The notes under the pieces were generated by a model, which worked only from the letters and a program-made list of their open reading frames with translations, had not been told where the DNA came from and searched no databases. A DNA stretch of 63,552 nt, filler included, from Reclinomonas americana ATCC 50394 (taxonomy: Eukaryota): NCBI GenBank assembly GCA_048213135.1. It is 14 parts of 14 records of this genome, joined end to end, with 100 filler letters (N's around TTAATTAATTAA, not from the genome) between each part and the next. Parts side by side here need not be neighbours in the genome. Positions count along the whole stretch, not along the records: positions 51,326 to 62,150 come from AFZH01020918.1; 13 more parts are not named here. One strand, 5' to 3'. The position numbers and the translations under genes are program-made. This document shows positions 26,052-63,226 of this stretch, one piece after another; the stretch's first letter is position 1, and the number at the start of each line of letters is the position of its first letter.

Positions 26052-29000
26052 CAGCATCATTCTCTTCGCTCGTTCCCAGTTCGATTCTGGCCGGCGTCGG
26101 TGTGACACACCAACTTCGTGTGTCAGGAACTGGCTTGCTACCGCCTGGCGCGCGCACGGTGCCGACAGACCCAGTGGCATTGGTGGTGGATGCTGCGTCC
26201 AACCCGACGTGCAGCAACGCCGACATTTCCGCTGTGCGGTACACGACGTCTTTGTCGTCGGCCAGCACCACGCAGTTGGTGTTTGGCTTCGATGCCACCG
26301 GCGTGTCAACTGGTGTCTATCGATTNNNNNNNNNNNNNNNNNNNNNNNNNNNNNNNNNNNNNNNNNNNNTTAATTAATTAANNNNNNNNNNNNNNNNNNN
26401 NNNNNNNNNNNNNNNNNNNNNNNNNGGCGACAGCCATCACGAACAATAGTATCAGTCTGGGTGTTCCGTATCTGGGACTGAGCAATGTGTCTGGCACGTA
26501 CCAGATATGTGCATCGTGGGGAACAGGAGCGCCGTTTTCCAGCGTCGGCACACTTGACGTGGGTTCGTATCGTGGTGTTTTCTTTGCTTGAGAGATCAAT
26601 CAACTCACTTGCGTGGATACATGTGTGTGTTCTATGATGTGCACAGCTGGGTTCTCGTCCGTGTCACCTGCTGCTGTCAGCATTGGCGGCGTTGGGTCGC
26701 AGCAGTCGTTCAACATCAACGGTCAGTCGTTCACGGACCTCACGACAGGTGGAGATGCGCAGGCGGTTGTTGTTGCGCGGTCGTGCTCTCCAATCAACAT
26801 GGCGGATGCGTGGACTCGCGTGCCGAGCAGTGTGTCGTTTGTGTCGAGTACTCGCATCTCGTTTGTGCTTGGCTTGAACGGGTTGGCCGCGATCAACGGG
26901 CTTCTTGTGTGCGTCCGCTTCTCGTCGACATCACTGTACACATCAGCCGGAACCATTGCGATCGGTGCGTTATTTGTTGGCGGCGAGAGAGAGGGAGAGA
27001 AACAACAAAGGAGAGCTTGCGACAGTCATTCACATTATGAGTGTGCTCACATGCTCTCTCTTCTCCGCAGAGGATTTGACGATCGATGCCAGCAGCATTC
27101 CAAGTACAGTGTTCCGCGGCTTCGAGTACACTCTTCGATGGCGGTGCTGGTCACGCGATGTGAATGCTCGAGTGGCGGTGACTGTGCAGCGTGTGTGTGA
27201 CAGCAGCAACGTGCGCGCTGTTCTTGAAGCCTATCCGGCTCGGTGCGATGCTGGCGCCACGCTCAACTCGCGAGTGTGGGTGGCGGTGGGGATGGACGAA
27301 GCTGCTGCGGGCACGTATCAACTGCAAGTGCAGCTGATTGATGTGGACGGACTGTCGCTGAGCCGCACATCGTCTGCATTCGGGTCGTCGCTCAGCAGCA
27401 TTGTGGTCAACTCGGTGTCGGTGGCGTCGGCGGACAGCGTCAGCCTCGTATTCACATGTAGAAACGAACTTGTCTCGGCCGTACAAGTGTCGGTTCGGAC
27501 GGCGACCAGTGCGAGTACCGAGACGGTAATTGGCAGCAATGTGGCGGCCACGTGCGGGCCGAGTACCGCCAGCCAGACGTATGTGTGGCAGCCGAGTGTG
27601 TCGTTTTCGGGGGCCGTTGATCTGGCACTGGATGTGGCCGACTTGCCGCGACTGACGAGTCGGTCGTCGAGTGCGATGTTTTCGTTGCCGACGATGGATG
27701 CGACGGGTGTGCGAGTGGTGGTGCCGACGGGTCACAGTGGTGTGGTGTTTGTGGGCGTGCAGTACACGATTGGGTGGCGGTGTGCACGAGCAGCAACTAG
27801 CAGCGTCGACGTGACCGTGAATGGAACGATTACAGTGGGAACTGGTGTGTCATCTACGTGTGGCAACTTGACGGTGGAAAACACGACGCAGTGGACGGTG
27901 AACAGCAGTCTGAGCGGATCGAACAACACGCGGGTGTCAGTGCAACAGACAGGCTATGCCGGCGCAGCCGGTCAGTCGTCCGTGATGCAGGTGCTGACGG
28001 CGAGTGCGACTCCGACGGGCGGCATGTTTCCGAGCACTGTGTACGAGGGCTACACGTACTCCGTGCCGTACACGTGCAATGTGCCTGGCGGCTACGTGCG
28101 GCTGCTGGTATCGGTGACAGGCAGTGCGAATGCGGCGGATACGGTGGAGGTGGCACGAGTGACGTCGTCGTCGACCGCGGCATGTGCGTCGACGGCGCTG
28201 AGTTGGACTGTGGCGCGTGCGGCATTGGCCATGGGCGGTGCGGCGGCTGGCGGGTACACGGTGTCGATTGAGGTGATGCACAGTGCACTCGTCTTTGGTG
28301 CTGCGAGCGGCGCGGTGAGTGCCGTCGGACAAGTGGGAGCCGTTGCAGACACGTTCACACCGGTGCCAGTGGTGATCACTGCTGGTGGCATGCCGACTGT
28401 GGTGAGCACTGTCAGCACGGACACGCTGTACCGCGTTCGATTCGGCTGTGTGGCGAATCCGCTCGTCGGCACGAATGTGGTGGTGGAGGCGATGGCACCG
28501 ATGTCGACGGCACCGATTGTGATTGGCACTGTGAATGGCGCGATGGCGTGTCCGAGTGGCTCCATGACCGTTGATTGGCGACCGCCGTCGGCACTGGTGT
28601 CTCTGGGCGGGTCGGTGGTGTTGTCGGTACGTGATGCGGCTGCTGCTGGAAGCAAGCGCACAAGTTCGAGCAGTGTGACGGTGGTCGCGTGGCAGCTGGC
28701 GGTGCGCATTGTGTCGGTGTGGCCGGAGCGTGTCAATGTCGGTGTGCGCTGTGCGCATCAGCTGGTGACGGCGGTGAATGTGGTGGCATCGAACGGAGTG
28801 ACGTTGCAGACGGGTGCACCGCTGACCTGCGCCAGTGCGGCGACGGAGAGTTTACTGTGGTGGAGCACGAGCACGTTGCCTGTGGGGACGTCACTGACGG
28901 TGCAGTTGGTGTATGCAGCCGACGCAACGATTGCGGTAACGAGTGCGGCANNNNNNNNNNNNNNNNNNNNNNNNNNNNNNNNNNNNNNNNNNNNTTAATT

Positions 29001-31723
29001 AATTAANNNNNNNNNNNNNNNNNNNNNNNNNNNNNNNNNNNNNNNNNNNNAGTGGAGAGAGAGAGAGCAAGGAGGAAACGCCTAATGGCGGACGAGAATA
29101 GAGAGCACACGATGGCGAGACGGCAAAGGAGCCGCAGACGTGGGAGAAGAATGCGAGAGAGGGAGGAGAGAGAGAGAGAGGCCGAGAAAGGGAGAGATAT
29201 TGAGAGGACATAGAGAGGGAGAGAGTGTGGGAGCGAGAGAGCAAGGAAGAATCGCCTGACGACGACAGACGGGAGTAGAGAGCATACAAAGGCGAGACGA
29301 CATCGAACCGCAGACGCGGGATGCGAATGAGAGAGAGAGAGAGAGACTGTGAAGGCACGAGAGTGGGAGTAGATATATTGAGAGGGAGAAGAGAAGAGAG
29401 AGAGCACGAAATGAAGAAAACAGCACCTGCTCACCCGCTCGTTGTGCACAGCATCCTTGTTCAGTGTGACGTCTCTCCAGCTGCCGTGGACAACACCGCC
29501 GACGGCGTTTGAGGTCAGCGCCATCACACTGCAAGTGCAGTGCAACCTGCCGTCGGTGACTGGCGTCAGTGTGGCTGTGTTGCCGGCTGGAGGTGGCGCT
29601 GCTGTTGTGGTGGTGCCATCACAGGCGGTGACGTGCGCTCTTGGAGGAACCACGTTGACGGTGGGACCGGCTGTCGTCGGTGCGCAGCCGACTGGTGTGT
29701 CATACGTATTGCAAGTGACGGGGACGGACGGTGGCTCGTTTGCACCTACTGCCACGTCGTCGGCCTTCGTCCTGTCTGGTGAGTTTCTGAGGTGGTGCTG
29801 ATGGACATGTTCGGTGTCTGCCTCTTGCTGACACATCTCACAGCGCCGATGTTTACGATGACGTCGCCTGCCGCCGACACGGTCCTGTATCACAACTACC
29901 AATACGAGGCAACGGTGCAGTGCGTGCAAGACAGCGCGAGCGGATCGGTCGATGTTGATGTGCTGCTTGTGGGTGGCGGCGGAACGACGACTGTCGCTCT
30001 CGCCACGGCATCGCTGCTGGAATGTCATCCGCGTGCGGCAGGTGCCACCTGGCCGACCGTGTCCTTTGCTACTCCAGCGACGACTACTGAAGGCGTGTGG
30101 ATATTGCGAGTGCAGTTGAGCTCGTCGCCGACCACCGTTTTCGATGGTGTCAGCGTGACAGTTCGTCGTGCACTGGCCATGGTGAATCCAGTGATCAGCA
30201 GCGCGACGCCAATCTTCACGGGCGAACTGATTCGCGTCGGCTTCCAGTGTTTCGGCAATCCGCAAATCACGGCAGTGGAGGTCATTGCGCGGCAGTCATC
30301 TGGAGCGACGATTGTTGTGCGCCGAATCGATCCGTTTGTGTGCGATCTCACCTCCCCGGTGACTGCGTTCGACTGGCGTGTCGACGCGACACTGCCTTCG
30401 CAGCCTATCGGTCTACTCGTGCGTGACGCGGTGCGCACCAGTGCCGAGTCGGCGGCCATCCAGGTACCGCAGTTGTATCGCACGCAGTTGCGCAATGCGT
30501 CGGTGCGGGCGGCCGATGGGGATGTGGCGGTGGTGGTGGCCGGTGAGGATATCGAAGTCGGCTGGCAGTGCAACAATCCCGCCACGCAGTCCATGCAGCT
30601 GCGCTTGATTCGTGCCGTCAGCAGCCTCACCTCGTCGGCGGTGGAGGCCACGGTGGTGGTGTCGCCGGTGCGATGTTCACCGCAATGGGACGCGAAGAAC
30701 GTGTATGTGTGGACACTGCCTGCCGAGGTGAAGACCGACACGTATCAGGTGGAGGTGTACGACAATCTGCGCAATGTGGCGTTGAGGACGCTGGCATTTG
30801 CCGTGCAACGTGAGTTTGATGAAGAGAGGGTGAAGAGGGGAAGGGGAATGAGAGGGGAAGGGGGAAAGAGGGGAAGTGGAAAGAGTGGGGAAGGGGGAGA
30901 GAGGGGAAGGGGAAAGAGAGGGGAAGGGGAAAGAGAGGGGAAGTAGAAAGAGAGGGTGGAATTGTGAGGAAAAGAGAAGCTGAGATTGAAGCAGGAGGGA
31001 CGAGCAGAGAAACGAGATGTTTTGGGTTTGCGGGGAGGGTGAAGCGAAGGAGAGGAAGTAGAAAGAGAGGGTGAAAGTGTGCGGAAAAGATAATCTGAGA
31101 GTGAAGCAGGAGGGACGAGAAGAGAAACGGGGTGCTTTTGGGTAGCGGGGAAAGTGCTGAAGGAGAAGGAGAGGAAGCCGCATGAGGAGAGTGCAAGGAA
31201 AAGATAAGCAGTGAGTGAGGCAGGAGGGACGAGAAGAGAAAACAAGTCGATGTGGGGCTTTGGGGACAGTGAGGGGGACGGAGAGGAAGTGGAAGGAGAG
31301 GAAGGCGCATGAGGAGAGTGCAAGGAAAAGATTAGCAGTGAGTGAGGCAGGAGTCGATGTGGGGTTTGGGGACAGTGAAGGGGAAGGAGAGGAAATGGAA
31401 AGAGAGGAAGGCGCATGAGGAGAGTGTACGCTAAAGGGAGACAGAGAGTGCGGCTGGAGGAATGAGAGGAGAAAATCGAGCGCATTAGAGTTTGCAGGGA
31501 AAATGAAGAGGAGATAGGGGACGCAGAAAGAGAGGAGCCCGCAGAGCGAGTCCCTTTTGCTCCTTCGATAATGTGGGGGGAAGAGATGAGTGTGATTATG
31601 TACTCTCTCTGCAAGTGAAGTGCAGAGTCGCTCACCTCATGAGAGAGGGAAGAGAGTGCGTGTGTTAATGCAGGATGGAACTCAGTTTGCTGCAGCATTG
31701 CAAGGTAGCGGTATTTTGTGCTG

Positions 31724-35619: not shown

Positions 35620-41042
<5,423 letters not shown>

Positions 41043-51225: not shown

Positions 51226-51325
51226 NNNNNNNNNNNNNNNNNNNNNNNNNNNNNNNNNNNNNNNNNNNNTTAATTAATTAANNNNNNNNNNNNNNNNNNN
51301 NNNNNNNNNNNNNNNNNNNNNNNNN

Positions 51326-51387
<62 letters not shown>

Positions 51388-51826
51388 GTGCATCTCTGCA
51401 TCTCATTGCCTCACCATCACTTGCCTTTCTCTCTCTCTCTCTCACCCTCTCAACCTCACAGTCTCTCTCTCTCTCTCTCCCTCTCTCTCTCCCTCTCCCT
51501 CTCTCTCTTCCCCCTCCCCGCACCTGCTCATCCTCACACCCTCCAATGCTCGGCGACGAATCCAACACCGACGTGTTGCTCCAATACGACACCGACAAGT
51601 GCTTCAGCAGCACGCGCACGAGAATGGAGAGTGGCCACAAGAAAATCAATGCACACACTGCACTTTGTGTGTGAGAAATAATGACACCAAAAGCGCGCGC
51701 TGTCTTCACCTGCGACAATCAACGTCACGCCACACACTCCTCCACACTCGTCGAGCATGCGCACAACGAAGAAACGCGTGTAGTGACAGACTTGACTTTC
51801 TGTCGATCGGTTCCAGCAATATCGTT

Positions 51827-54822
51827 TTACTTATTTCTGCGAGTGCGTGACGCAGATGTGATACTTTTGCCACGGGTAACAGCACTAACAGGTACTCTCC
51901 ACGATGTCAGCGACAAGCCCACAAAGATTGCCACAAACGGAACCACCTCGTACTCGGGATGCAACTTCCGCAGGTTCGTCGCATATCGCTGCACCTGCTT
52001 ATCGGCGGCAGCTACTGTGGCTGCAAGTGTCGTTGTGACCATAGCTTGCGCTTTCTGGTTGAAGTAGCTGTACGACAGAGATGGCAGGGGTTTCCTGCCA
52101 TTGTCGGTCGTGAAATTCTCGTTCGTCTGCACAGACGACAATTCGTTAGCGAACATCCAACTCTCACCGCGAAGAAACAGGAGATGCGCACCGGAAGCAC
52201 AGCCTCGAGAGCGGACTGAGCCTCATCAGTACGATGTGCCTTGGCCTCCATGTTTGTCGACTGGCTGGTTGGAGGACTGCGAAGATTCAAGTGGATCGTG
52301 TTTAGTGGAATGCACTTGAACTCGAGCACCAGGATGCGCTTCGGACACTCCATGAAAAGCGCCATGTCGCAGATTGCTGACATTGGCTCATGCTACACTC
52401 AAAGAGTAAGTGTAATCGCAAGTCTCACAGTTCGCAGCATCGTTGCTCACCTCTAAGCTGATATTTATCTCACACTCAGTCTTGGCCGGAACTTTGGCGG
52501 CCATGAGCTGCACGTCAAAGGCGTCCCTGACGTTTACCTCGCGCATTTGCTCTGGATTGCACAACATGCGTCGGCGCAAATAGCGTTCACAGACGTCGCT
52601 CAAGGGAACAATGTTGAGATCACTGCTTTGTGTTGAGCATACACCGAGTGAAAGGAGGACGTAGAGCGGCAATTGAAGAAGAACCTGAGGAGCGAATTGC
52701 AGGCAGTTGGATCGGTACGCTGCACGAGGCGCTGGAGAATGCGATCGCGCGTGCTCTCATTCGGTACAATCAGCGCTGTGCGAGGAGTCAGTGAGGGTGC
52801 GACAAGTCGGAAGACAAGAGATGACAACACAACAATTTCCATCCGGCGCGATCGTATAGCCGCCGAGGTACTGGCAGAACTGCGCAAATGCGGGCGCATC
52901 GGCACTGGCAATGTCATCACGGCGAAAGGCTGCCATGTCACGCGGCAGTGGGATCTTGGAACCACGCAGCATGCCAAGCAGCGACGGCAGGTGAGGCGAC
53001 TCCACCATCATCTGCAGTGCCGGGCTGCTCAGCTCGGCCTGCTGGAATACAGTGGTCGGCGTTGCTTGACCCAGCTCTATCAACTGTGGGACCTGATGAG
53101 AGGTGTCCGACAAGTGCGAGGAATGAGAACAAAAAAACCACCCGCAGGTACGACATGACTTGGTCGGTGCAGTACATGGGAACGGCATCCGCGGACGGGA
53201 AGAACCGAAAGCCCTCGTAATGCTGCCGGATGACGGTACGGTGGAATGTCTTCTCGCTGACAGACAACGAGCGAGTGCCGTTGAACTGCAGTTGGTCCAA
53301 CAGCAAATCAACCTCGGCGCCCGTCAGACCGCACACGGATTGCGTTTGCTGGAAGAATGTCCAATCCTGACCGATGTTGAAGCCGCTCGTCATGTCGTTC
53401 ATGAACAGTGGGAGCACACTACGCACGCGTACGGGGGAAATCAGTGCCATCAGTGTACGTGATGGGGATCATGACAGGAGCTCACCCAGTGATGAGCATG
53501 AAGCCAATGGCGTCGGCCTGTACAGCACTCTTGATGGTGGCGAACAGACCCTTCACGCCACTGTCGCTCAGCAGAATATGGTACTTGCGCTCGGCGTCGT
53601 CGTTCAGTACTGGTACAAAGGGGCGATCGGATTCGTCGACGAGGATGACGAGCTGCGAGGTGGCGTGTGTGTGTGAGTGTGTAAGTGAGTAAGTAAGTGA
53701 GTGAGTGAGTGAGTGAGTGTGAGTGTGAGTGTGTGTGTGTGCGTTTGCGTGTGTGCATGTGTTGGCGATTGAAAATGAAAGAGCAAGCTGGTCATGATCA
53801 CACCTTCCTGCCGAGACCCCGCACGGTTCTCACAATGGCCTGAAGCACAGCAGAAGGCTTGCCGAATCTGGCAATGCCAGACGCCTTGAACTCGGGATAG
53901 CTGTCCAAGAAAGGCGTGACGCAGAACTGCAAAAAGAATTCCTCAAAGGTGACGCGTGATGACTGTGGTTCCGAGAGTGAGAATTCCAGCGCCGTCATGT
54001 CCATCCTCAGCACGTAGTGCTGGCACGGTAGCTGGTTGCGGTGTACCTCGTGGATGCGATCCACAATATGTAATCCCTGCGGCGAGAAACAGACAACCAC
54101 AAGCAACGACAAACGCAAACACAAAAGTGGAGGGGAGGGAGAGAGAGAGAGCGTGAGGGAGAGCGACGCTTCTTGAAGAAGGGCGACCAAGTGAAACATA
54201 CCAGGAAAAGGCGCTCGAACTTACTCTCTCCCTGTGAGGCCTTTCTGCTGAGCAGCCGCGTGTGCAGTGCCGACACGGCGCGCTCGCGGATGGCCCGCAC
54301 TTCCGTGTGTGAGCGATCAGCCATGGCCTCACGTTCAGCGGAAGACAGCGCATTGTTGATGTCGTGATAGTTGGCGAGAGTGTCGACCAGCATGCTCTTG
54401 CCGAAGCGGCGAGGGCGCACAAAAAGAATAGGCGACACTCTCTCAGGAGCAAGCCAGGGGAGAAGTTGCACGGTCTTGTCGACATAACAGAACGACTCGC
54501 TCGTGCGGATGCCGACGAAACTGTCACCAGTGGGTGGTGGAATCAAGTGCCCTGCGAGAAGAGGAAGGATGACGTGCGTGAGAGGTGCGTAAAGGATCAG
54601 TCGCTCTCGCTTTCTCTCTCTCACAGCACACGAGCAAGAGTGTGCGAAGAGAGAGAGAGAAAAATTGCGTGTCAGGTCTGGATCCGGATACTCTGACCAC
54701 ACAGTAATTATAATACACTGCATATTAGCTGTTCACGCACCTCCAACGTTAACGACGGAGGCAGTGGCGGTGGCATAAGTGCGGAGAGATGCGTGGGTGG
54801 TGATTACCCACAAGCGCATCAT
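51827..54822 (-). CDS. AAA-ATPase-like domain plus PD-(D/E)XK nuclease (PDDEXK_9/DUF1703 type), intron-containing, with candidate mitochondrial presequence
   Basis: YVDKT...FVRPRRFGKSMLVDTL; LVILVDESDRPF; MLITG|VLPLFMNDMTSGFNI; CGLTGAEV; HYEGFRF; LIVPNE; CDMAL...ILVLEFK; ADKQVQRY. Exon 1 (54822-54741) reads MMRLWVITTHASLRTYATATAS. Confidence 0.85.
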
Positions 54823-54902
54823 CTTTGGAGATCAATCTACAAAACAGAAGGTGAGATGTCCTGCGGAAACAGCACACGACGTCCCGGAGTCTTTGCGTGT
54901 GG

Positions 54903-55180
54903 ACACCGATCTAGGGTTGAGGGTGGAGAGAGACATTGATTACACGCACACACCGATCAAGAGTCGAGGGTTGGGAGACACTGATTACACGCACACACCG
55001 ATCAAGGGTCGAGGTTGGAGGAGTGACATTGATTACACGCACACATCGATCAAGGGTTGAGGGCGGAGAGAGATACTGATTGCACGCACCGATCAAGGGT
55101 TGGGGGTGGAGGAGAGACACTGATCACACTCACATATAGAATAAAGGGTTGAGGGTGGAGAGGGACACTGATCACATGCA
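54903..55180. repeat. Second array (about 6 copies) of the 46-bp minisatellite family
   Basis: CACACCGATCAAGGGTTGAGGGTGGAGAGAGACACTGATTACACG units, same orientation as 41086-41540. Confidence 0.9.
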
Positions 55181-55309
55181 CCGTTTCTGAAGAAAAGGAC
55201 AATGACCGTGCACCAGAATGTACAGTGTCCGCGACGACAGCGGTGGTTCTGACGTGTTGCAATCATTCAGCACCTACTCGGATCCAATGCTCTTGCACAG
55301 TACACTGAA

Positions 55310-58300
55310 TCAAACAGCTCCTGTGACCATGCCGCGATGTTCGGTTCTGTTGTAATCCTCGTCGGCAGCCTCCAGTAGCGGCGCATGGAGCGTTGAGTCG
55401 CCAGTAACTTGCACATGACGGCTCGCACCCACTTGCATCTCGATTTCTGTTGAGCAGCGACGGGGAAGCATACAGAGATAAAAGGAATGAGTGAGAGAGA
55501 GAGAGGGTAATGAGAGTGCTCTGCATCGAGAATCCCCGCCTCTAAGACGACGCGCACCATCGGAAACTGCGGATCCTCGCCTCTGCCGACGTCTGCAAAA
55601 CGCCACCACGGCCTTGATACCAGACAGCACTACTGGGCCCACCAACACTGCGCCAGCCAGCGAGAGCACTACGATGCACGTGACAACCTTGAAGCGCGTG
55701 GACGCCTGCGATGCGAACACGGTGGATATGACAACCAGCGAGCCGAGCCCGATGGCCTGTCAAGCACACAATGAGAATGCATGTGTGTCCGCACTCACAG
55801 TGCACGACTCACCTCCAGCACATTGTACAAGAGGTGTTCATAGGCGCGAACAACAAGGTGCACCGCGAGGAAGGCGACACACACCACCCACAGTGCCAGT
55901 GGAAGGATGTCGATGGATCCCGTGGCGGCGAGAGGGAAGAGCACAGCGAGGATGATCAGACGTCGACAGAGTTGATAGCCTGATGTACCGAAAAGGAATA
56001 GTGAGAAGTCATGCTCGGTGCGGTGACGACCTTCATCTGCAATACTGATGGTGGGGCAATTGTTGACTTTTGTATTCCCCTACTGTGTGTTTGCTTGTCC
56101 CTCAGTCTGTGGTGCGAATACGAGACTCTTTTCGACGGCAAGTGGCAGTGGTGTAACTATTTGCCGTGCGTACTCAGGAAGCGCTATAATCTTATCTTGA
56201 ACGCGAGAGAGTAACACAAATAGTGCAGCGGAGAAGCAAACAATTAAACATCAGTGCGCCCGTATGCATTCTGACCTCACTGCTCTCAACAACTTTTGGG
56301 CATGATTTGCTGTGCGCACCCAGCAAATGCAAAGCCTTATCTTGCACGTGAGCGAGTGACGCAGAGAATACATCGGAGAAAAGCATCAACCTACCCGCGT
56401 GCATTCTGATCTCGCTGCTCGCTTCCACCCTTCCCTCTCGAGTCACTCACCTTGATACCACACCACCGGAGGCCGGAAGTGGTCGTACAACACACCGAAT
56501 CGTCGCCGAGTCTGTCACACAAGAATGAGACCATGGCATCTCACGCAAGCTTCTCTTGCAATCCCACCGACCTTCTCGTCATGCAGTCTCTTCTGCCGAC
56601 GCAAGCGCACGGTCCACCACACCACCAGCACTGGCACACTGAGAGTTGCTGCCAGCAGCACGGCGAAGAGCGGAATCAGTCGCTGCCACCTGTGCACATA
56701 TTTGTTGATCAGCACGGAACGAGACAGCCGCACCGCTGCAAAATCAAACGCAACACTCCCTCGTAGCACACAATGCTGGGTGAAAAGAGCACCACATGAC
56801 TGTTGCCGACCTCCGTGCACGTGAAAAACGTAATCGCCGTCTCCGCCAGGCCCTCGTACGCTCCCAGCAGCAGCACAACTGTTGTCAGGATGTAGTGGTG
56901 CGGCGAGGCGATAACCCTGAACCATGTGACGAATCGCGGCCATCGTCCGCTCGTCGAGCCATGGTGGATGCAGCGCACCAATGCTCTTGCAAGCAGCCAA
57001 TGTAGAACAAAGCAGGCCCACAAGATCGCCAGCGACACAAATGGCGACACGACACGAGCCAACAGGTCACCGACAGCGTCTGTGTTGAACGGACAGCCGA
57101 CATCCAGAATGCGCGGCACGACAAAGGTGAGCAGCCGGTTGAGAGAGATGAGTTCCACGTTGGGGTAGAAGAGGAGTGTGGTGGTCTGGAGGGTGAAGAT
57201 GATGATTTCGGCAGATGCTGCAAGCAAACATTCAAGTGGGTCAGTCTTGATCCAATCAACACGGGTGTGTTTGCTTTCCTCTCTAACTGCCTATAGTTCC
57301 TCTTGCTTCATGTCTCTTCTCCTCACTTGCTGTCTCTCCTTCGACTGCGTCGTGTTACCATCTTTCTCCCACTCGCTGTGTTCCGCAATGAGTGCGGCTT
57401 CCCTCATCGCTCCTCTCACGCCTTTCCTGTCTCCCTTCCTCTGGGACTCGCTCGTCTCTCCATTGCTCTTCTCGCCCTCGCCTTTCCCATCTCTTCTATT
57501 CTCACTTTCGCGTTTCCCGTCTCTTCTTCCGGATTACACACCTTCGCCAACATCAATCTGGAAGAAGACGTGGATGAATAGCACAAAGGCAAGCATCTTT
57601 GTAAACGTCCACAAGCGCGCCCATCCAGAGGTTGATTCGCACGGAATGCACAGTCCCTGCCACTGAGAGTAGCCCTCCTGCACATTCCAGTGAGTTCATC
57701 ATCTTCCACTCGTTGCATCGACATGTGACTCACCTTGCATGCTCCACACAGTGGCGAGTCCGACGCACGATTTGTCTCCTCACTGCAGTATTCGGCATCG
57801 ACGGCAACCAAAGTTTGACTGGCGTTGTCACCGCGTTCGCAGTAATCATAAGGACAGAGGTATGCCACCACAGTTGACGGTGGCGACACTAGCGTGCCTG
57901 TCCATCCTTTCGACAAGACACCCTCAATCTGCCAGTCAGCATCAACTGGGAAGGTCCAGAACTGCGACTGCACTGCCATCTGCAGTCCGCCGAGGCAGTC
58001 GGCATTGGCTGGACACGGTACACTCGTCTGGTTGAATGCGCTCGTCGGCAGCGCATACTCGCCAGGGGGACATTGCTGGCAGCCAATGTCCGTGTAACTG
58101 TAACCCGCTGGGCAGGCTGCCAGTGGCAATGAGAGCTCAGGCTGCGGGCCGACAAAGCCACCACCAGAGCCGGTGGTGATGCTGATGCTCACAGGATCAC
58201 CGCTGTCGCGCAGGTGCGCGCGAATGCCTTGAGTCGGATTCGCCCCACGCTCGACAATCGTCAACTGGAATGTCGCTGTTCCAGCCTCAGTCGACTCCGA

Positions 58301-61300
58301 CAGAGAGCTCGTCTGCATAAGTGGACGGGTCGTCAGCGAGGAACAATCTTGAAAGAAGAGATGAGAAAGCACGACAAACCGCTGGACTGCAACCAGTAGA
58401 GCAAATGACGTGGAACTGGGTATTATCCAGCGTGGACATGAATTGACCAAAGACATCCGTAGCGTTCACCTGTATCACTCGTGGTTGCTGTGGCGATGGA
58501 TACGGCACGCCACCGGTCAAACCCATCATAACAGAGTACAGCGCTGCAGCGGAGCACAAGCCTTGAAAATGCAAGCACACATATTGCTCATCACATGCAA
58601 CGCAACTGCTGCCGACATCATTCGCCAGCGTGTTGCTGGCCAGGTTACCAGTGACGCTTAATTGCCGCTGTTGCATCCACGATGACCACCCACCAGCCGC
58701 TGTGAACGACTGCCATACAGCAGCCAGCGTGGACGGATTGCCACCACCGTTCCAAAACACCCCGCCACCGGCTCCTTCGCCAACCAATCGCGGTTGACCC
58801 AGAGGCGTCACCGCTTGGTTGCCAAACACTGACACACCAAGCAGGAACACGCCGACGGAACTCGCTCTCGACTGAGTGATGTTGACGGCCAGACCGCCAC
58901 CGCGTGCTCCACTCCAGTTGTCAGCAAATGTCGTTGAGACAAAGGAAGTCACCGTCGTGTCCACTACTGATGCTCCACCACCATCACCTCGCTCGGCCGT
59001 GTTGCCTACAAAGCGAGTGTTCGAGCTGGTGACGTTGGCAGAGCCACCAGCAAAGAGTCCGCCACCAACTGTTGTCGCCGTGTTGTTCATCAGCAGCGAG
59101 CCCGTGATGTTCACTTGTGGATTGTTGTCCGTGTAGATACCACCACCGTTCTCAGCTTGGTTACCCTCCACAGTCACCGCAGTCATTGCCACTCGCGCAG
59201 TCTCCGCCGCCGACACGCCACCACCACCGCCACCACTAGCGACACGATTGGCGAGGAGGCGTGATCCCCGCAGCGTGGTGCTTGAACTACCGGCGGCATA
59301 CAATGCACCGCCCCACAACTGTGCCAGGCCAGCACTGAGTGTGCTGCCCGTATCAATCCACATTCCCAGTCCTTGCGTAGTCACATGACCGCCGGAGGTG
59401 GCTGCTGTGTTGCTCAGGAACTGGGTGGTGGACGATGTTACATTGGCCGTCTGGGACACGTACATGGCGCCTCCGGCCAGGGTGGCATTGTTGGTTGACA
59501 ACGTGCAGTTGGCGAGACTGATCTGCGACACGCCATCGGCATACACGCCACCACCATCTGCAGTCGCCTGGTTGCTGCGGATTGACGTTCTGATCAGCGT
59601 GTGCTTGCTGTTCTGGTCGATAAACAGGCCACTACCAAAGGGGGCAGAATTGCCCACAATAAAAGCGTCGGACCAAGAAGACGAGGACTGCAGGTCGGCA
59701 AACATTCCACCACCGAAATGAAGTGCCTTGTTGTTCTGCACACTAGAGCCGCTCGACACTGCAAGCGTGGCGGTGGCGGTGAGAAATAAACCACCACCGC
59801 TCTGCGTTGCTTGATTGCTGTCCACCACAGATTGCGATTGAATCTGCAAGTCTGCCTGCTCGGCACGCACAGCAAGACCGCCACCATACAGCGCCGTGTT
59901 GCTGGAGATACTGGTCTTGCTGATTGTGGCCGAGGTGGCCACCTCGCTGAGCACCACTCCACCACCGTATCCGTCAGGCGCCAAGTTGGACGTGATGAAA
60001 GAGTCCATAATCTTGCAGCCCTGTCCGCTCATGGCCACGCCACCACCACCCGTTTCCAGCGCAGTGTTCCCCGAGATATGAGATGCGGAGAGTAGAGACT
60101 GCGCTCCCACCAGCACACCGCCACCAGTTACGTGTTCGCCAGACACAGAGTTGCCGGAGATGATACATCTAGTGGCCGAGCTTGATGCGTCGAGCAGCAT
60201 TGCGCCACCCCCATGAGAGCGACCGGCAATGACAAGCGGGACAGACGATTGTACGGAGTTGCCAGTCAGGGCTGACGAGGAAATCGCGGCACCGTCGACG
60301 GCGAGCACCGCACCGCCACCGCAGAATCCACCAGAAGGATAGAGCGCATTCCCGGCACCAGCATCTTCCACGCGGTTGTCGACAAACTGAGAAGCGGAGA
60401 GGTATGAGGGCGAATTCACCAACAGCACGGCACCACCACCGTTGTGGTTGCTGCCTTGCCCGTTGAGAGTGTTGCTGAGGCCACCCGCACCGTCACGGAT
60501 AGACTGATTGCCGATGAATGTGCAACCCGTAACGTTGAATGTGCCCTGAGAGCGGAGATACGAATGGGCGAGTGAGTGGGCTTCGATCACGACATCATGA
60601 GCAACAGAAACGATGCAACTGCTGTTGTCGACGGTGCAACCAGCAACGCTGCTCCTCCACCATTGAAGCCGCCAAAAGAGGCGCCGATTGTACTGTTGAA
60701 ACCGCCCGCACCATTGTGCCACGATGTGTTATTGAGAAACTGGGACTGGCTGACCGTCTGCATGGTGGTGGTGACAGACTCAGGACACTACGAAGACGGA
60801 TGCACTCGGGGACAAGGTAACGAACTAGAACGGAAGAAGAATTGGGGGTGGAGAAGACGAGCAGTGCGCCTCCGCCGGAAAAGGTTGCAAGGCTGCTTCC
60901 CGACGACGTATTTCCGCTGCCCCCGTTTCCTGTGTGAACGATGAGTAACAATGATTTGATCACAGAAAATTCTGACGATTGCACGGCAAGAGTGGGGATC
61001 ACCATTGCCGCCAGCGGAGTTGTTGAAAAAAGTGCAGCCGGAAATCTTTTTCAAACGCAAGATGCGACAAATGAGTGACACTCTGAGACACTTGGTGAAG
61101 CTGACAAGCAGAACCTCGAGAGTGCCGGGAAGAGTGGCCAGGACGGCACCGCCGCCACCGGCTGACCCGATGGCATCGCCTCGGTTGGCACTGCTGCCTC
61201 CAACAGCATTCCTTGAAGCCACATTGGAGAGGAATGCGCAGTCTCGTATGACCGCCTGCGCAAGCGTGATAATGAGTTCAGGCAGTTATGCAGATAGACG

Positions 61301-61910
61301 ATGAAGCGAGAAACCATGATCGCGCTGCTCCTTAATGATACAAGCAATGCGCCGCCTCCATTTCGAGAACCTGATGCGGTGTTTGTGAGTTGACTCGATC
61401 CACCATTTCCATTTGTGCTGGCCTCATTGCTCTCGAATCGACAACCCTCAATTATCTGTTTGTGGGACTGTGTGAGAATCAAAAGTAAGATGATGACAAC
61501 AACCACGAGGGTACGAACCAAGTTCGATATCGTTCCGGCGGAAAACAAGATTAGCATGACTCCACCTCCATTCACGCTGCCAGAGGCACTGGCTGAAACT
61601 GTGATGGCGGGCGCACGAGAACATCCGCGTGTTAGAATCGTAAACCACGAGATCGCAATGCGGTTGTCGTCGTGGTGGCGTAGGCGGCCTCACCTGCAGA
61701 GCCGGAGCCGCCATTCCCATTGTTACTTGCAGTATTCGATGTGAAGGTGCAGTTGCTGATTCTCGACGTCTGCAACAACAACAACAACAATAACAACGAC
61801 AACAACAACAGCACGAAGAAGACGCACACAAAGTGTGAGTGACACGAAAACAAACAATCTCTCAACTCTTTCCAAGTTTGTGCAAACAAACATACAACCA
61901 ACAATAGGAA

Positions 61911-61958
<48 letters not shown>

Positions 61959-62049
61959 CACACCTGACTTGTAGTAGAGGCAAAGCCGTTGATCAGCACG
62001 ACACCACCACCATTGGTGCTACCGTTGCTATCCGCACTCGCACCGTATT
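55310..62049 (-). CDS. Large surface protein: polymorphic-membrane-protein (GGA[ILV]/FxxN) beta-helix repeats, Cys-rich module, multi-pass TM C-terminus; 5' end not visible
   Basis: Repeated FxxNxA..GGG[AGV][VLI] motifs (58600-62040); CPAGY...CQQCPPGEY...CPANADCLGG...CPYDYC...LCGAC; several TM segments 55650-57650; FFTC...PSIVCY; stop at 55310. Confidence 0.85.
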
Positions 62050-63226
62050 CTGCAAGCAAAGAGCACACATCGATCAGGTCAACTGTACGCACAATCAACC
62101 TCACACATACATTCACATCTTAATCTTAAACCGGAACATAAGAACAAGATNNNNNNNNNNNNNNNNNNNNNNNNNNNNNNNNNNNNNNNNNNNNTTAATT
62201 AATTAANNNNNNNNNNNNNNNNNNNNNNNNNNNNNNNNNNNNNNNNNNNNTCAAAAGGTAAAAAGGGGCTTACGTGCAGCTTTCTTGTGTGCAAAAAGAC
62301 GTGACAGGGAGGGATGCATCGATCAGAATAAGCAAACACTGCTTCTATTGCAACATTTATTGCAGCGCTGCGATATCGATATCGATTCAATAATATATCG
62401 CTGTCCTTGATCCTCTTCTGTGTACTACGAGTGGCGGCAAAGTGTGGTGGCGTGTGTAGTTGGGCCGTAGCTGCGCGCGAGGAGACAGGTGAGCACAGTG
62501 CTGGGGGATTAAATTGCACGTAACCAGATTTATATTTGATATCACAGCAAAAATTTAAAAGAATAGCGCAACCAGCACCATCGACAGCACGTGCACGTGT
62601 GCCTACCGCGGGGTCGCTGAGCAGGTTGTGCAACCCAAGAAGCAGGCCTCACCTCCAGAAAGCTGGAGAGAGAGAGAAGACGAGACAGTGAACCAATCGG
62701 TGCGCATATGCGTGCGCTCTCGCTTGCTCCGTGGCCGCTCTGCGCGCGCTGCACTTGTCCGCCACAGTGTGTCACACGTGGCAAGACTAGCAGCGAGCGA
62801 TGACAAGGTGAAGACAGGCCAGCATGCTTCTCTGCAGAGCACACAAATCTCGATTTCGCCTAAGTTGCGCACCTCGTGGTGGTGCGCTGCCTGGCACGCC
62901 AACCGAGGCCGATCAACCTCTGCGCATGCATGTCCATGGAGGAGCAGGGGTCGCCTCTCTAGCCACATGATCCACAAACAAGCACGAACGATAGTAACGG
63001 GCATTGACAAAAGCTCAACCGTCGCAAAACACCCATGCCACAGACAACTCCCCATTACACAACACAACGCACACTCAAAGCAACAGCAACAGCGCTGCGA
63101 ATGATGTTTACCAACTAGAAGAACAACAACATGTCACAACTTACTCAACAACACTCATCGCAAGAGATCATCGACAGTCTCTCTCCTTTTTCTCTCTTCT
63201 CTTTCACAAACACACACAGACACACG

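Follow-up and report, generated by a model that had tools for sequence, protein, structure and literature searches.

A ten-exon nuclear gene of Reclinomonas americana encoding a divergent DUF1703 protein, a predicted ATPase-nuclease of probable bacterial origin

How does an ATPase-nuclease fusion of bacterial type come to be encoded by an intron-bearing gene of a microbial eukaryote, and could its short first exon direct the protein to the mitochondrion? Both questions are raised by a locus on the minus strand, at positions 51827-54822 of a 63,552-nucleotide stretch of DNA, filler included (the whole of which is referred to here as the window). The sequence-only reading of this locus had proposed a horizontally acquired, restriction-like enzyme retargeted to the organelle. 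Our analyses favour, with a probability of about 0.7, a resident nuclear gene for a divergent DUF1703 member of bacterial origin, catalytically intact as judged from its residues and predicted to act as an NTP-gated nuclease.

Gene structure and genomic setting

Joining the predicted exons by their coordinates gave a coding sequence of 2163 nt in 10 exons, i.e. 720 codons followed by the stop codon TAA (51829-51827). The start ATG (54822-54820) has an in-frame TGA 12 nt to its 5' side. All nine introns are of the GT..AG type, with lengths of 189, 125, 151, 67, 58, 58, 62, 58 and 65 nt, and in eight of them the length is not a multiple of three, so that each of these has to be removed for the conserved blocks to share one frame. 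Intron 1 is the sole exception and also the sole junction without a homology check; its donor and acceptor are similar to those of the eight introns supported by homology, and unspliced read-through from exon 1 reaches a TGA two codons on. The intron had previously been placed at 54740-54552, with donor G|GTGCGT, acceptor CAG and an in-frame junction with exon 1, and the minus strand reads exactly so. The features of the locus are as follows.

48-nt tandem repeat, 54903..55181, no strand: 6 copies, lying 81 nt 5' of the start ATG
Exon 1, 54741..54822, minus strand: 82 nt, residues 1-27 and the first base of codon 28; N-terminal extension
Intron 1, 54552..54740, minus strand: 189 nt, GTGCGT..CAG; (CT)n and (GA)n runs; in-frame ATG at 54723-54721
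Exon 2, 54202..54551, minus strand: N-terminal strand and Walker A, then a lineage-specific insert (residues 96-138)
Walker A, 54394-54417, minus strand: RPRRFGKS, residues 73-80
Exon 3, 53804..54076, minus strand: strand and helices of the ATPase core; aligns with bacterial homologues, inside a 120-bit profile domain
Exon 4, 53486..53652, minus strand: Walker B (D241-E242-S243-D244), next helix and strand
Walker B, 53626-53649, minus strand: VDESD, within residues 237-244
Exon 5, 53142..53418, minus strand: conserved S-G-x-N loop, lid, helical domain
Exon 6, 52834..53083, minus strand: helical linker and winged-helix-like region
Exon 7, 52685..52775, minus strand: invariant P-N pair (P471-N472)
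Exon 8, 52451..52622, minus strand: first helix of the putative nuclease (E525); the first-strand Glu is E546 (MAFFT) or E554 (hhalign)
Exon 9, 52192..52392, minus strand: nuclease D563 and E578-F-K580; first part of an insert specific to the lineage (residues 581-660)
Nuclease D, 52366-52368, minus strand: residue 563
EFK, 52315-52323, minus strand: residues 578-580
Exon 10, 51827..52126, minus strand: remainder of the insert, Q665..Y669 helix, last strands (G691), stop TAA
QVQRY, 51983-51997, minus strand: residues 665-669

Alternative splice sites may exist for exon 6, namely an acceptor at 53092 (adding three residues) and a donor at 52831 (adding one), the former being disfavoured because, with the acceptor used here, two conserved positions stay 19 residues apart as they do in bacteria (Y373-P392, against Y295-P314 in the bacterial homologue P0109). 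An alternative donor of exon 9, about 30 nt downstream, would make the intron too short. The 48-nt repeat lies inside a gap of about 490 nt to the next upstream reading frame on the same strand, which ends near 55310.

The gene has a GC3 of 0.68, and its RSCU correlates at 0.77 with that of the window's other reading frames; given this likeness, it is resident in the nuclear genome of an intron-rich microbial eukaryote. The nine spliceosomal introns and the host codon use led us to reject bacterial contamination. A tblastn search of the window with the joined protein yielded no second copy, the sole other match having an E of 0.47. Rfam gave no match in the whole window. In its 150 longest reading frames Pfam recognised the target, NHL repeats, an ABC membrane domain and, below threshold, an aldo-keto reductase, and nothing else. 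A word-indexed search with an ABC-transporter reading frame of the window yielded no match at E<=1e-10 among 8000 candidates.

Family membership and retention of catalytic residues

Bacterial DUF1703 proteins combine the Pfam domains AAA-ATPase_like (PF09820) and PDDEXK_9 (PF08011). Exon 2 alone scored 44.9 bits against PF09820, above the Pfam curated cut-off of 26.1, and exon 4 scored 16.4 bits over profile positions 143-190, below that cut-off. The joined protein matched a profile of 108 full-length bacterial homologues with 170.1 bits (E 3.6e-54), its residues 39-491 and 648-693 corresponding to profile positions 11-423 and 541-587; the latter, C-terminal match is weak but correctly placed. 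The best single bacterial match, P0109, reached 116 bits and spans residues 38-591. Both the profile match and the alignment with P0109 show four modules, over the full length and in the bacterial order.

Exons 8, 9 and 10, each scanned alone, gave no match to PF08011 at E<=1, a phmmer search with the C-terminus alone was not significant (best E 0.03 in a set of 195), and the C-terminus stayed unaligned by hmmalign in glocal mode. Its best local matches sit at the same place in the bacterial proteins, and hhalign paired it with the bacterial C-terminal profile at P 4.7e-4 (probability 33%) over 145 columns, with all motifs paired. Colinearity, conserved residues and this local hhalign result together point to a nuclease domain.

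The intact Walker A, Walker B, D...EFK nuclease motif and downstream Q..RY noticed earlier are all present at the mapped positions. Walker A (residues 73-80) is identical to the published DUF1703 signature and a D-E-x-D Walker B is present; the available text of the family definition lists RPRRFGKS, DEYD and nuclease motifs I-IV (PMC1913061), and the same motifs occur in the window protein. E525, D563, E578, K580 and Q665 align with bacterial columns that are invariant or at least 90% conserved. In a comparison with 80 bacterial proteins, 31 of 38 invariant family residues and 31 of 58 columns conserved at 90% or more are kept, overall identity to the bacterial consensus being 149/534 (28%). 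Among those retained are Walker A, Walker B, E525, D563, E578, K580, Q665 and Y669, and with them every catalytic one, as well as the invariant D162, E163 and D165 in exon 4 and S302, G303, N305, G321, Y358, G360 and F363 in exon 5.

By sequence, P0109 found no match in the PDB at E<=1. Its AlphaFold2 model (pLDDT 86.7) was best matched by the archaeal Walker-type ATPase 2qen (Foldseek E 4.9e-7, TM 0.65 on target), with further matches to 2fna, Orc1/Cdc6 and CED-4/Apaf-1 (E 4.9e-7 to 1e-4 overall), in agreement with the link to PF01637 and AAA+ drawn in the available text of the family description (PMC1913061).

The earlier term restriction-like is a statement about fold: neither a methylase partner nor membership of a defence system turned up with PADLOC or in 14 bacterial loci. 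PADLOC assigned no family to the four window exons; of the four bacterial homologues submitted to it, P0054 alone gave a match, a weak one to a type I restriction enzyme (16.4 bits); NCBIfam gave nothing meaningful, and no partner gene recurred in the 14 loci, with their 128 neighbouring reading frames. Judged by its sequence, the predicted protein is a divergent eukaryotic member of the known DUF1703 family, and the idea of a bacterial-type ATPase-nuclease fusion in an intron-bearing eukaryotic gene is upheld by the ten-exon model, the profile match and the motifs.

The leader exon and the cell compartment

Exon 1 adds about 28 residues absent from the bacterial proteins, a conserved Phe lying at position 39 here versus positions 10-13 in 70 of 80 of them. 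Since the first ATG of exon 2 comes after Walker A, a start codon is required upstream. The GC3 of exon 1 is 0.667, with other exons at 0.60-0.79. As had been noted from the sequence, exon 1 is free of acidic residues: the first 36 residues contain no Asp or Glu, two Arg and two His, with a net charge of about +2, and Ser, Thr and Ala together account for 11 of the first 27. The stretch R14-T-Y16|A17 is also present; R-x-Y|A is a cleavage pattern of R-3 type presequences. A signal peptide was rejected, the first Arg being followed by a hydrophobic run of just six residues.

It might accordingly be proposed that the exon-1 peptide came to direct a transferred ATPase-nuclease to the mitochondrion, and that the protein is cleaved after R-T-Y and acts on organelle DNA in its processing, in copy control or in defence against selfish elements. 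Such a history would suit an exon that looks coding, that is almost exactly the part absent in bacteria and that supplies the upstream start, and it would suit the composition of the leader and its match to the cleavage pattern. The same leader nevertheless has only two Arg and a low net charge, and a motif of the form R-x-[YFL]-[AS] arises in 5.4% of shuffles. In a crude test on the Eisenberg scale, in which shuffles keep the same residues, its maximal hydrophobic moment (0.29-0.37) was equalled or surpassed in 76%, 47% and 49% of shuffles for windows of 11, 14 and 18 residues, i.e. an amphipathic helix is not seen above shuffles. Moreover, any gene gaining a eukaryotic promoter could acquire a short leader exon with no targeting role. 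Of the presequence suggested earlier, the extension of 28 residues and its freedom from acidic residues stand, while the two Arg and the hydrophobic moment speak against it. Mitochondrial targeting, as suggested by composition and a short motif, is possible; the full retargeting scenario we hold only tentatively and consider doubtful.

A further step would be that the protist domesticated a bacterial single-gene STAND-like ATPase-nuclease which, imported into the mitochondrion by means of the recruited leader exon, polices organelle DNA, for example by breaking down mitochondrial plasmids or mtDNA that is foreign or damaged. We regard this as unlikely; if true, it would mean that a prokaryotic conflict module was repurposed for control of an organelle genome.

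The start codon itself could be placed differently, at the in-frame ATG 54723-54721 inside intron 1, with exon 1 then being 5' UTR or lying outside the gene. The frame is open from 54723 into exon 2, and intron 1 is the one intron that is both divisible by three and without a homology check. The stretch in question, however, has a GC3 of 0.50, like the introns (overall GC 0.47-0.57) and below the exons, it consists partly of (CT)n and (GA)n runs, and the intron 1 splice sites resemble those of the other eight introns, all of which makes an intronic start improbable. The leader beginning at this ATG would have 58 residues, acidic ones among them.

Origin, proposed mechanism and known systems

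Among 7999 proteins scored, 5828 were relatives at E<=1e-5. Within the best 120 relatives, the 25 named by organism are all bacterial, and among the 554 pattern matches listed in prokaryote genomes at least 548 encode relatives, which bears out the earlier statement that the family is widespread in bacteria. One relative from a plant assembly (P0019, 42.6 bits) is no closer than the bacterial ones. A HMMER scan of 1.84 billion cluster representatives with exon 2 only gave 74 matches, the best at 47.7 bits and none at E<=1e-10, and a word-indexed search of 5.8 billion clusters, again with exon 2, found none among 424 candidates. In the sequences sampled the family is overwhelmingly prokaryotic, as is the distribution given in the available text of its description (PMC1913061).

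A phylogeny against bacterial and eukaryotic homologues had been named as a check on horizontal acquisition, and its outcome, for the bacterial side, did not favour the claim. In two trees built with bacterial homologues, a very long branch (2.59 changes per site in FastTree, 5.52 under the IQ-TREE mixture model) leads to the window protein, which falls in neither of the two bacterial clades sampled. The bacterial ingroup has an SH-aLRT of 93 in IQ-TREE, and FastTree joins the window protein to the outgroup, with a long-branch warning. Neither tree nests it in a sampled bacterial clade or gives positive support for a bacterial donor; owing to this position and to the long branch, transfer is inferred from the distribution of the family, and no donor can be named. 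The earlier proposal of acquisition thus keeps its basis in a family that is otherwise prokaryotic in our sample and loses the expected nesting. An old horizontal transfer from a bacterium is the likeliest history.

The same trees would also fit a history with no transfer into this lineage, the gene belonging instead to a branch of the family, outside the sequences sampled, that is old and vertically inherited or else specific to eukaryotes. The maximum identity is 28-29%, and the gain of nine introns together with complete adaptation in composition points to great age. Yet exon 2 found no closer relative in either of the two large searches, the organism-named relatives are bacterial except for P0019, itself no closer, and the published distribution, as far as the available text goes, is prokaryotic; vertical descent is hence improbable, and somewhat more so than an intronic start. 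That transfer left behind no more than a functionless relic, decaying or unexpressed, as the very long branch and the two large inserts (residues 96-138 and 581-660) might suggest, is very improbable in view of a frame intact over ten exons, the retention of 31 of 38 invariant residues, every catalytic one included, against a background identity of 28%, and adapted codon usage.

Under the favoured reading of a resident gene of bacterial origin, the gene would have come from a bacterium long ago and later acquired nine spliceosomal introns, the codon usage of its host, two inserts specific to the lineage and a short additional first exon that provides the start codon. The product would comprise an N-terminal P-loop ATPase of the ORC/Cdc6/STAND-like kind, in which Walker A (R-P-R-R-F-G-K-S) is of the unusual type seen in the family and Walker B has the form D-E-x-D, then a helical linker and a C-terminal PD-(D/E)XK nuclease. 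Binding and hydrolysis of nucleotide by the ATPase module would switch or assemble the protein, and this state would license the nuclease domain to cleave nucleic acid in a Mg-dependent manner, resulting in a self-contained, single-gene NTP-gated nuclease. To judge from family and fold, this is the most likely mechanism.

DUF1703 is abundant in bacteria, and the available parts of the published family descriptions report no tested function, ATPase or nuclease activity included, for any member. That all catalytic residues were kept while nine introns accrued argues that the ATPase-nuclease chemistry itself is of use to a eukaryotic cell, and with the eukaryotic copy the substrate could be sought in another setting, independent of the bacterial one. 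Should the leader exon direct the protein to the organelle, the gene would clearly exemplify the recruitment of a bacterial conflict-type enzyme to the control of organelle DNA.

Among known systems, the nearest are the bacterial DUF1703 proteins of about 595 residues from Thiothrix, Thiolinea and Desulfobacterales (P0109, P0102, P0123), which share the order of four modules, the Walker A signature, the D-E-x-D Walker B and the nuclease E/D/E-x-K/Q..Y residues. The window protein differs from them in its identity of 28-29%, its nine introns, its extra N-terminal residues, its inserts, a Y-to-S change in Walker B D-E-Y-D and changes at six other invariant positions. PABY2304 (2qen), SSO1545 (2fna), Orc1/Cdc6 and the STAND ATPases CED-4 and Apaf-1 share the ATPase fold with P0109, a bacterial stand-in for the window protein, but are without a PD-(D/E)XK domain and only 8-14% identical. 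The CifB cytoplasmic-incompatibility factors, set beside it by description only, differ in being much larger, in having two nuclease domains and in acting with CifA. Finally, the available part of a study of Hemiptera reports bacterium-to-eukaryote transfer of this family in sap-feeding insects, where AAA-ATPase-like genes of whitefly, psyllid and mealybug are likewise members of a bacterial family fixed in eukaryotic nuclear genomes through several independent transfers (bioRxiv 10.1101/2024.06.03.597214); genes reported on the mealybug B chromosome belong here too. By description, which is the level of this comparison, those genes are animal and linked to endosymbiosis, whereas the present one belongs to a GC-moderate microbial eukaryote with short introns; at present, it adds one divergent case to the pattern of transfer already reported there.

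Structure and residence of the gene

The gene at 51827-54822 (minus strand) was modelled from the minus-strand reading of 51500-55200 and its stop-to-stop frames, and its ten exons were joined by coordinates in a script. The spliced product comprises 2163 nt, or 720 codons, and terminates in a TAA at 51829-51827.

Exons of the gene model and motifs of the joined protein
54822-54741, minus, exon 1
54551-54202, minus, exon 2
54076-53804, minus, exon 3
53652-53486, minus, exon 4
53418-53142, minus, exon 5
53083-52834, minus, exon 6
52775-52685, minus, exon 7
52622-52451, minus, exon 8
52392-52192, minus, exon 9
52126-51827, minus, exon 10
residues 73-80, Walker A
D241-E242-S243-D244, Walker B
D563, nuclease Asp
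E578-F-K580, nuclease E-x-K
Q665..Y669, nuclease Gln/Tyr

All nine introns (189, 125, 151, 67, 58, 58, 62, 58 and 65 nt, in order) are of the GT..AG type with pyrimidine-rich 3' ends, and because eight of the nine lengths are not divisible by three, each must be removed for the conserved blocks to stay in frame. The sequence-only reading had placed the first intron at 54740-54552 with an in-frame junction, exactly as in this model, and every catalytic motif that it had named was located by residue in the 720-residue protein. Intron 3 contains (GTGA)n and (GTGTGC)n microsatellites (53665-53761).

This is a resident gene: its GC3, at 0.68, falls within the range of seven other frames in the window (0.54-0.70), and its RSCU correlates with theirs at 0.77. 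Bacterial contamination is ruled out by that correlation, the host-like GC3 and the nine spliceosomal introns. A linker (44 N, TTAATTAATTAA, 44 N) recurs in 13 places (e.g. 51226-51325 and 62151-62250), which shows that the window consists of 14 contigs strung together by an all-frame stop linker; the order of genes from one contig to the next may be arbitrary. The contig holding the gene spans 51326-62150, and no second copy was found within the window. About 90 copies of TC occupy the contig end downstream of the gene (51326-51518). On the other side, between the gene and its upstream neighbour and 81 nt from the start codon, is a 48-nt tandem repeat (54903-55181; six copies, 79% matches).

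Other frames in the window include an 813-residue open frame with Gly-Gly-Gly-containing repeats throughout (58287-60728, minus), which lacks a Pfam match, suggests a surface protein of the beta-helix kind and perhaps runs on to 55310-55759 (minus); a same-strand frame downstream of it combines a hydrophobic segment with a basic tail, resembling a membrane anchor. Three long frames without introns (16541-17881, 26878-28998 and 29783-30946, all plus) have a high content of Ser, Thr, Ala and Val and are built of recurring modules, about 100 residues long, that bear a Trp/Tyr-x-Cys pair. They lack a Pfam match and may constitute a family of surface proteins specific to this lineage. Across several linked contigs (17.9-23.2 kb), four plus-strand frames contain NHL repeats (PF01436; highest score 47.5 bits). 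In the pair at 37648-38256 and 15536-16000 (both plus), one frame scores 36.5 bits against a membrane domain of ABC transporters and the other 22.1 bits against an aldo-keto reductase, below the cut-off of 24.

Membership of the DUF1703 family

By every sequence criterion tested, save a direct PF08011 match, the predicted protein is a member of DUF1703, the family combining PF09820 (AAA-ATPase_like) with PF08011 (PDDEXK_9). Exon 2 alone scored 44.9 bits against PF09820 (Pfam curated threshold, 26.1), and exon 4 gave a sub-threshold match further along the profile. When exon 2 was run exhaustively by HMMER against 1.84 billion cluster representatives, 74 proteins were returned at E<=0.001, the best at 47.7 bits and 41% identity, and none at E<=1e-10, so nothing in that library lies near the gene. 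PF09820 was present in 11 of 13 matches scanned against Pfam, one of these also carrying PF08011, and the three organism-named proteins among the ten best comprised Planctomycetaceae, Bacteroides and one plant assembly. Of 7999 proteins scored with a profile built from the nearest matches and window exons, 5828 reached E<=1e-5; the best 120 of these 5828 were mostly of 560-600 residues with both domains, and all 25 that bore an organism name were bacterial (Thiothrix, Thiolinea, Desulfobacterales, Planctomycetaceae, Tannerella, Thermotogota, Thermoflexia and others).

The joined protein matched the best single bacterial protein at 116 bits (residues 38-591). Against a profile made from 108 full-length bacterial homologues it scored 170.1 bits (E 3.6e-54), profile positions 11-423 corresponding to residues 39-491, with a small, correctly placed further match at residues 648-693. 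Aligned together with 80 bacterial proteins, it retained 31 of the 38 invariant columns and 31 of the 58 conserved at >=90%, at an overall identity to the consensus of 149/534. The columns kept include the entire Walker A, both Walker B acids, E525, D563, E578, K580, Q665, Y669 and G691, the pattern that would be expected under continuing selection for catalysis.

The family case is weaker for the nuclease domain. No exon scanned singly matched PDDEXK_9, phmmer with the C-terminal 229 residues alone was not significant, and hmmalign left those residues unaligned. Comparison of the C-terminus with the bacterial C-terminal profile by hhalign (P 4.7e-4, probability 33%, 145 columns) pairs all four nuclease motifs; the first-strand glutamate is E546 or E554, two alignments disagreeing. 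Because the N-terminal match is strong and colinear, the domain is accepted as probably homologous. In its published description the family has an AAA+ module carrying RPRRFGKS and DEYD, then a helical linker, then a PD-(D/E)XK domain that bears motifs I-IV (PMC1913061), and the motifs of the target agree with this. What is new here is that the copy is eukaryotic, divergent, rich in introns and equipped with a leader exon; titles, abstract openings and passages of the papers listed by full-text searches revealed no protist or organelle-targeted member.

Translation start and targeting

The conserved Phe of the first strand lies at position 10-13 in 70 of the 80 bacterial proteins versus 39 in the target, so that exon 1 (residues 1-27) represents almost exactly its extra part. 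The first ATG within exon 2 falls after Walker A, and the start must therefore lie upstream. An ATG inside intron 1 (54723-54721) is a possible alternative, although the stretch that it would add has an intron-like GC3 (0.50) and is partly microsatellite. As exon 1 resembles the other exons in GC3 (0.667), a spliced start in exon 1 is favoured, on small numbers.

Import into the mitochondrion directed by the exon 1 peptide, proposed by the sequence-only reading as an apparent presequence, appears unlikely. In its favour, residues 1-36 lack acidic side chains, have two Arg and two His with a high content of Thr, Ala and Ser, and include an R-x-Y|A matching the R-3 pattern; yet the maximum helical hydrophobic moment was equalled in roughly half of the shuffles or more, and the motif type itself arose in 5.4% of them. 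Were exon 1 found in transcripts and import into the organelle seen, the value of the gene would rise sharply.

Origin, bacterial setting and predicted mechanism

The case for the proposed horizontal acquisition rests on distribution in the sampled sets. The family is common among prokaryotes: their genomes yielded at least 554 pattern matches, 548 of the 554 matches listed encoding relatives, and passages in print treat it as a prokaryotic family with several copies in some symbionts. A eukaryotic copy has precedent, since transfers of bacterial AAA-ATPase-like genes into whiteflies, psyllids and mealybugs are reported (bioRxiv 10.1101/2024.06.03.597214). Neither tree shows a donor or nesting in a sampled bacterial clade. 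In FastTree (126 rows; proteins <400 residues, the plant-assembly protein and five repeat proteins from outside the family left out), the target adjoins the outgroup on a branch of 2.59, with a long-branch warning; in a quick mixture-model IQ-TREE run (44 rows, 43 representatives hand-picked), it falls outside both bacterial clades on a branch of 5.52 (bacterial ingroup SH-aLRT 93).

Among 128 adjoining reading frames scanned in 14 bacterial loci, no recurring partner gene was found. Neighbours are mostly unrelated housekeeping genes, with small nuclease or mobile-type genes scattered among them: Uma2 in two of the 14, and DUF559 with a reverse transcriptase in one. Three further features occur in one locus each, namely a PIN domain, a tandem paralogue, and a DNA methylase adjacent to an ORC-CDC6-like kinase.

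Features beside family genes in bacterial loci
L030:2282-4060 and L030:5938-7767, tandem family paralogues
L001:7794-8381, putative Uma2 endonuclease, directly beside
L039:8039-8815, putative Uma2 endonuclease, directly beside
L003:5354-5773, putative DUF559 endonuclease, directly beside

A PADLOC scan found no matching model. Taken with the lack of a recurring partner and the switch-like fold of a bacterial homologue (P0109), this points to a self-contained nuclease, predicted to be NTP-gated. In bacteria the protein may plausibly serve in defence or conflict. A table in one review reportedly places PF09820 among the domains of some defence systems. Walker-type ATPases, Orc1/Cdc6 and STAND ATPases are nucleotide-dependent switches that bind DNA or form rings. 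The AlphaFold2 model of P0109 (pLDDT 86.7), on which this likeness was seen, has as its closest PDB entries the archaeal Walker-type ATPases 2qen and 2fna, Orc1/Cdc6, and the STAND ATPases CED-4 and Apaf-1.
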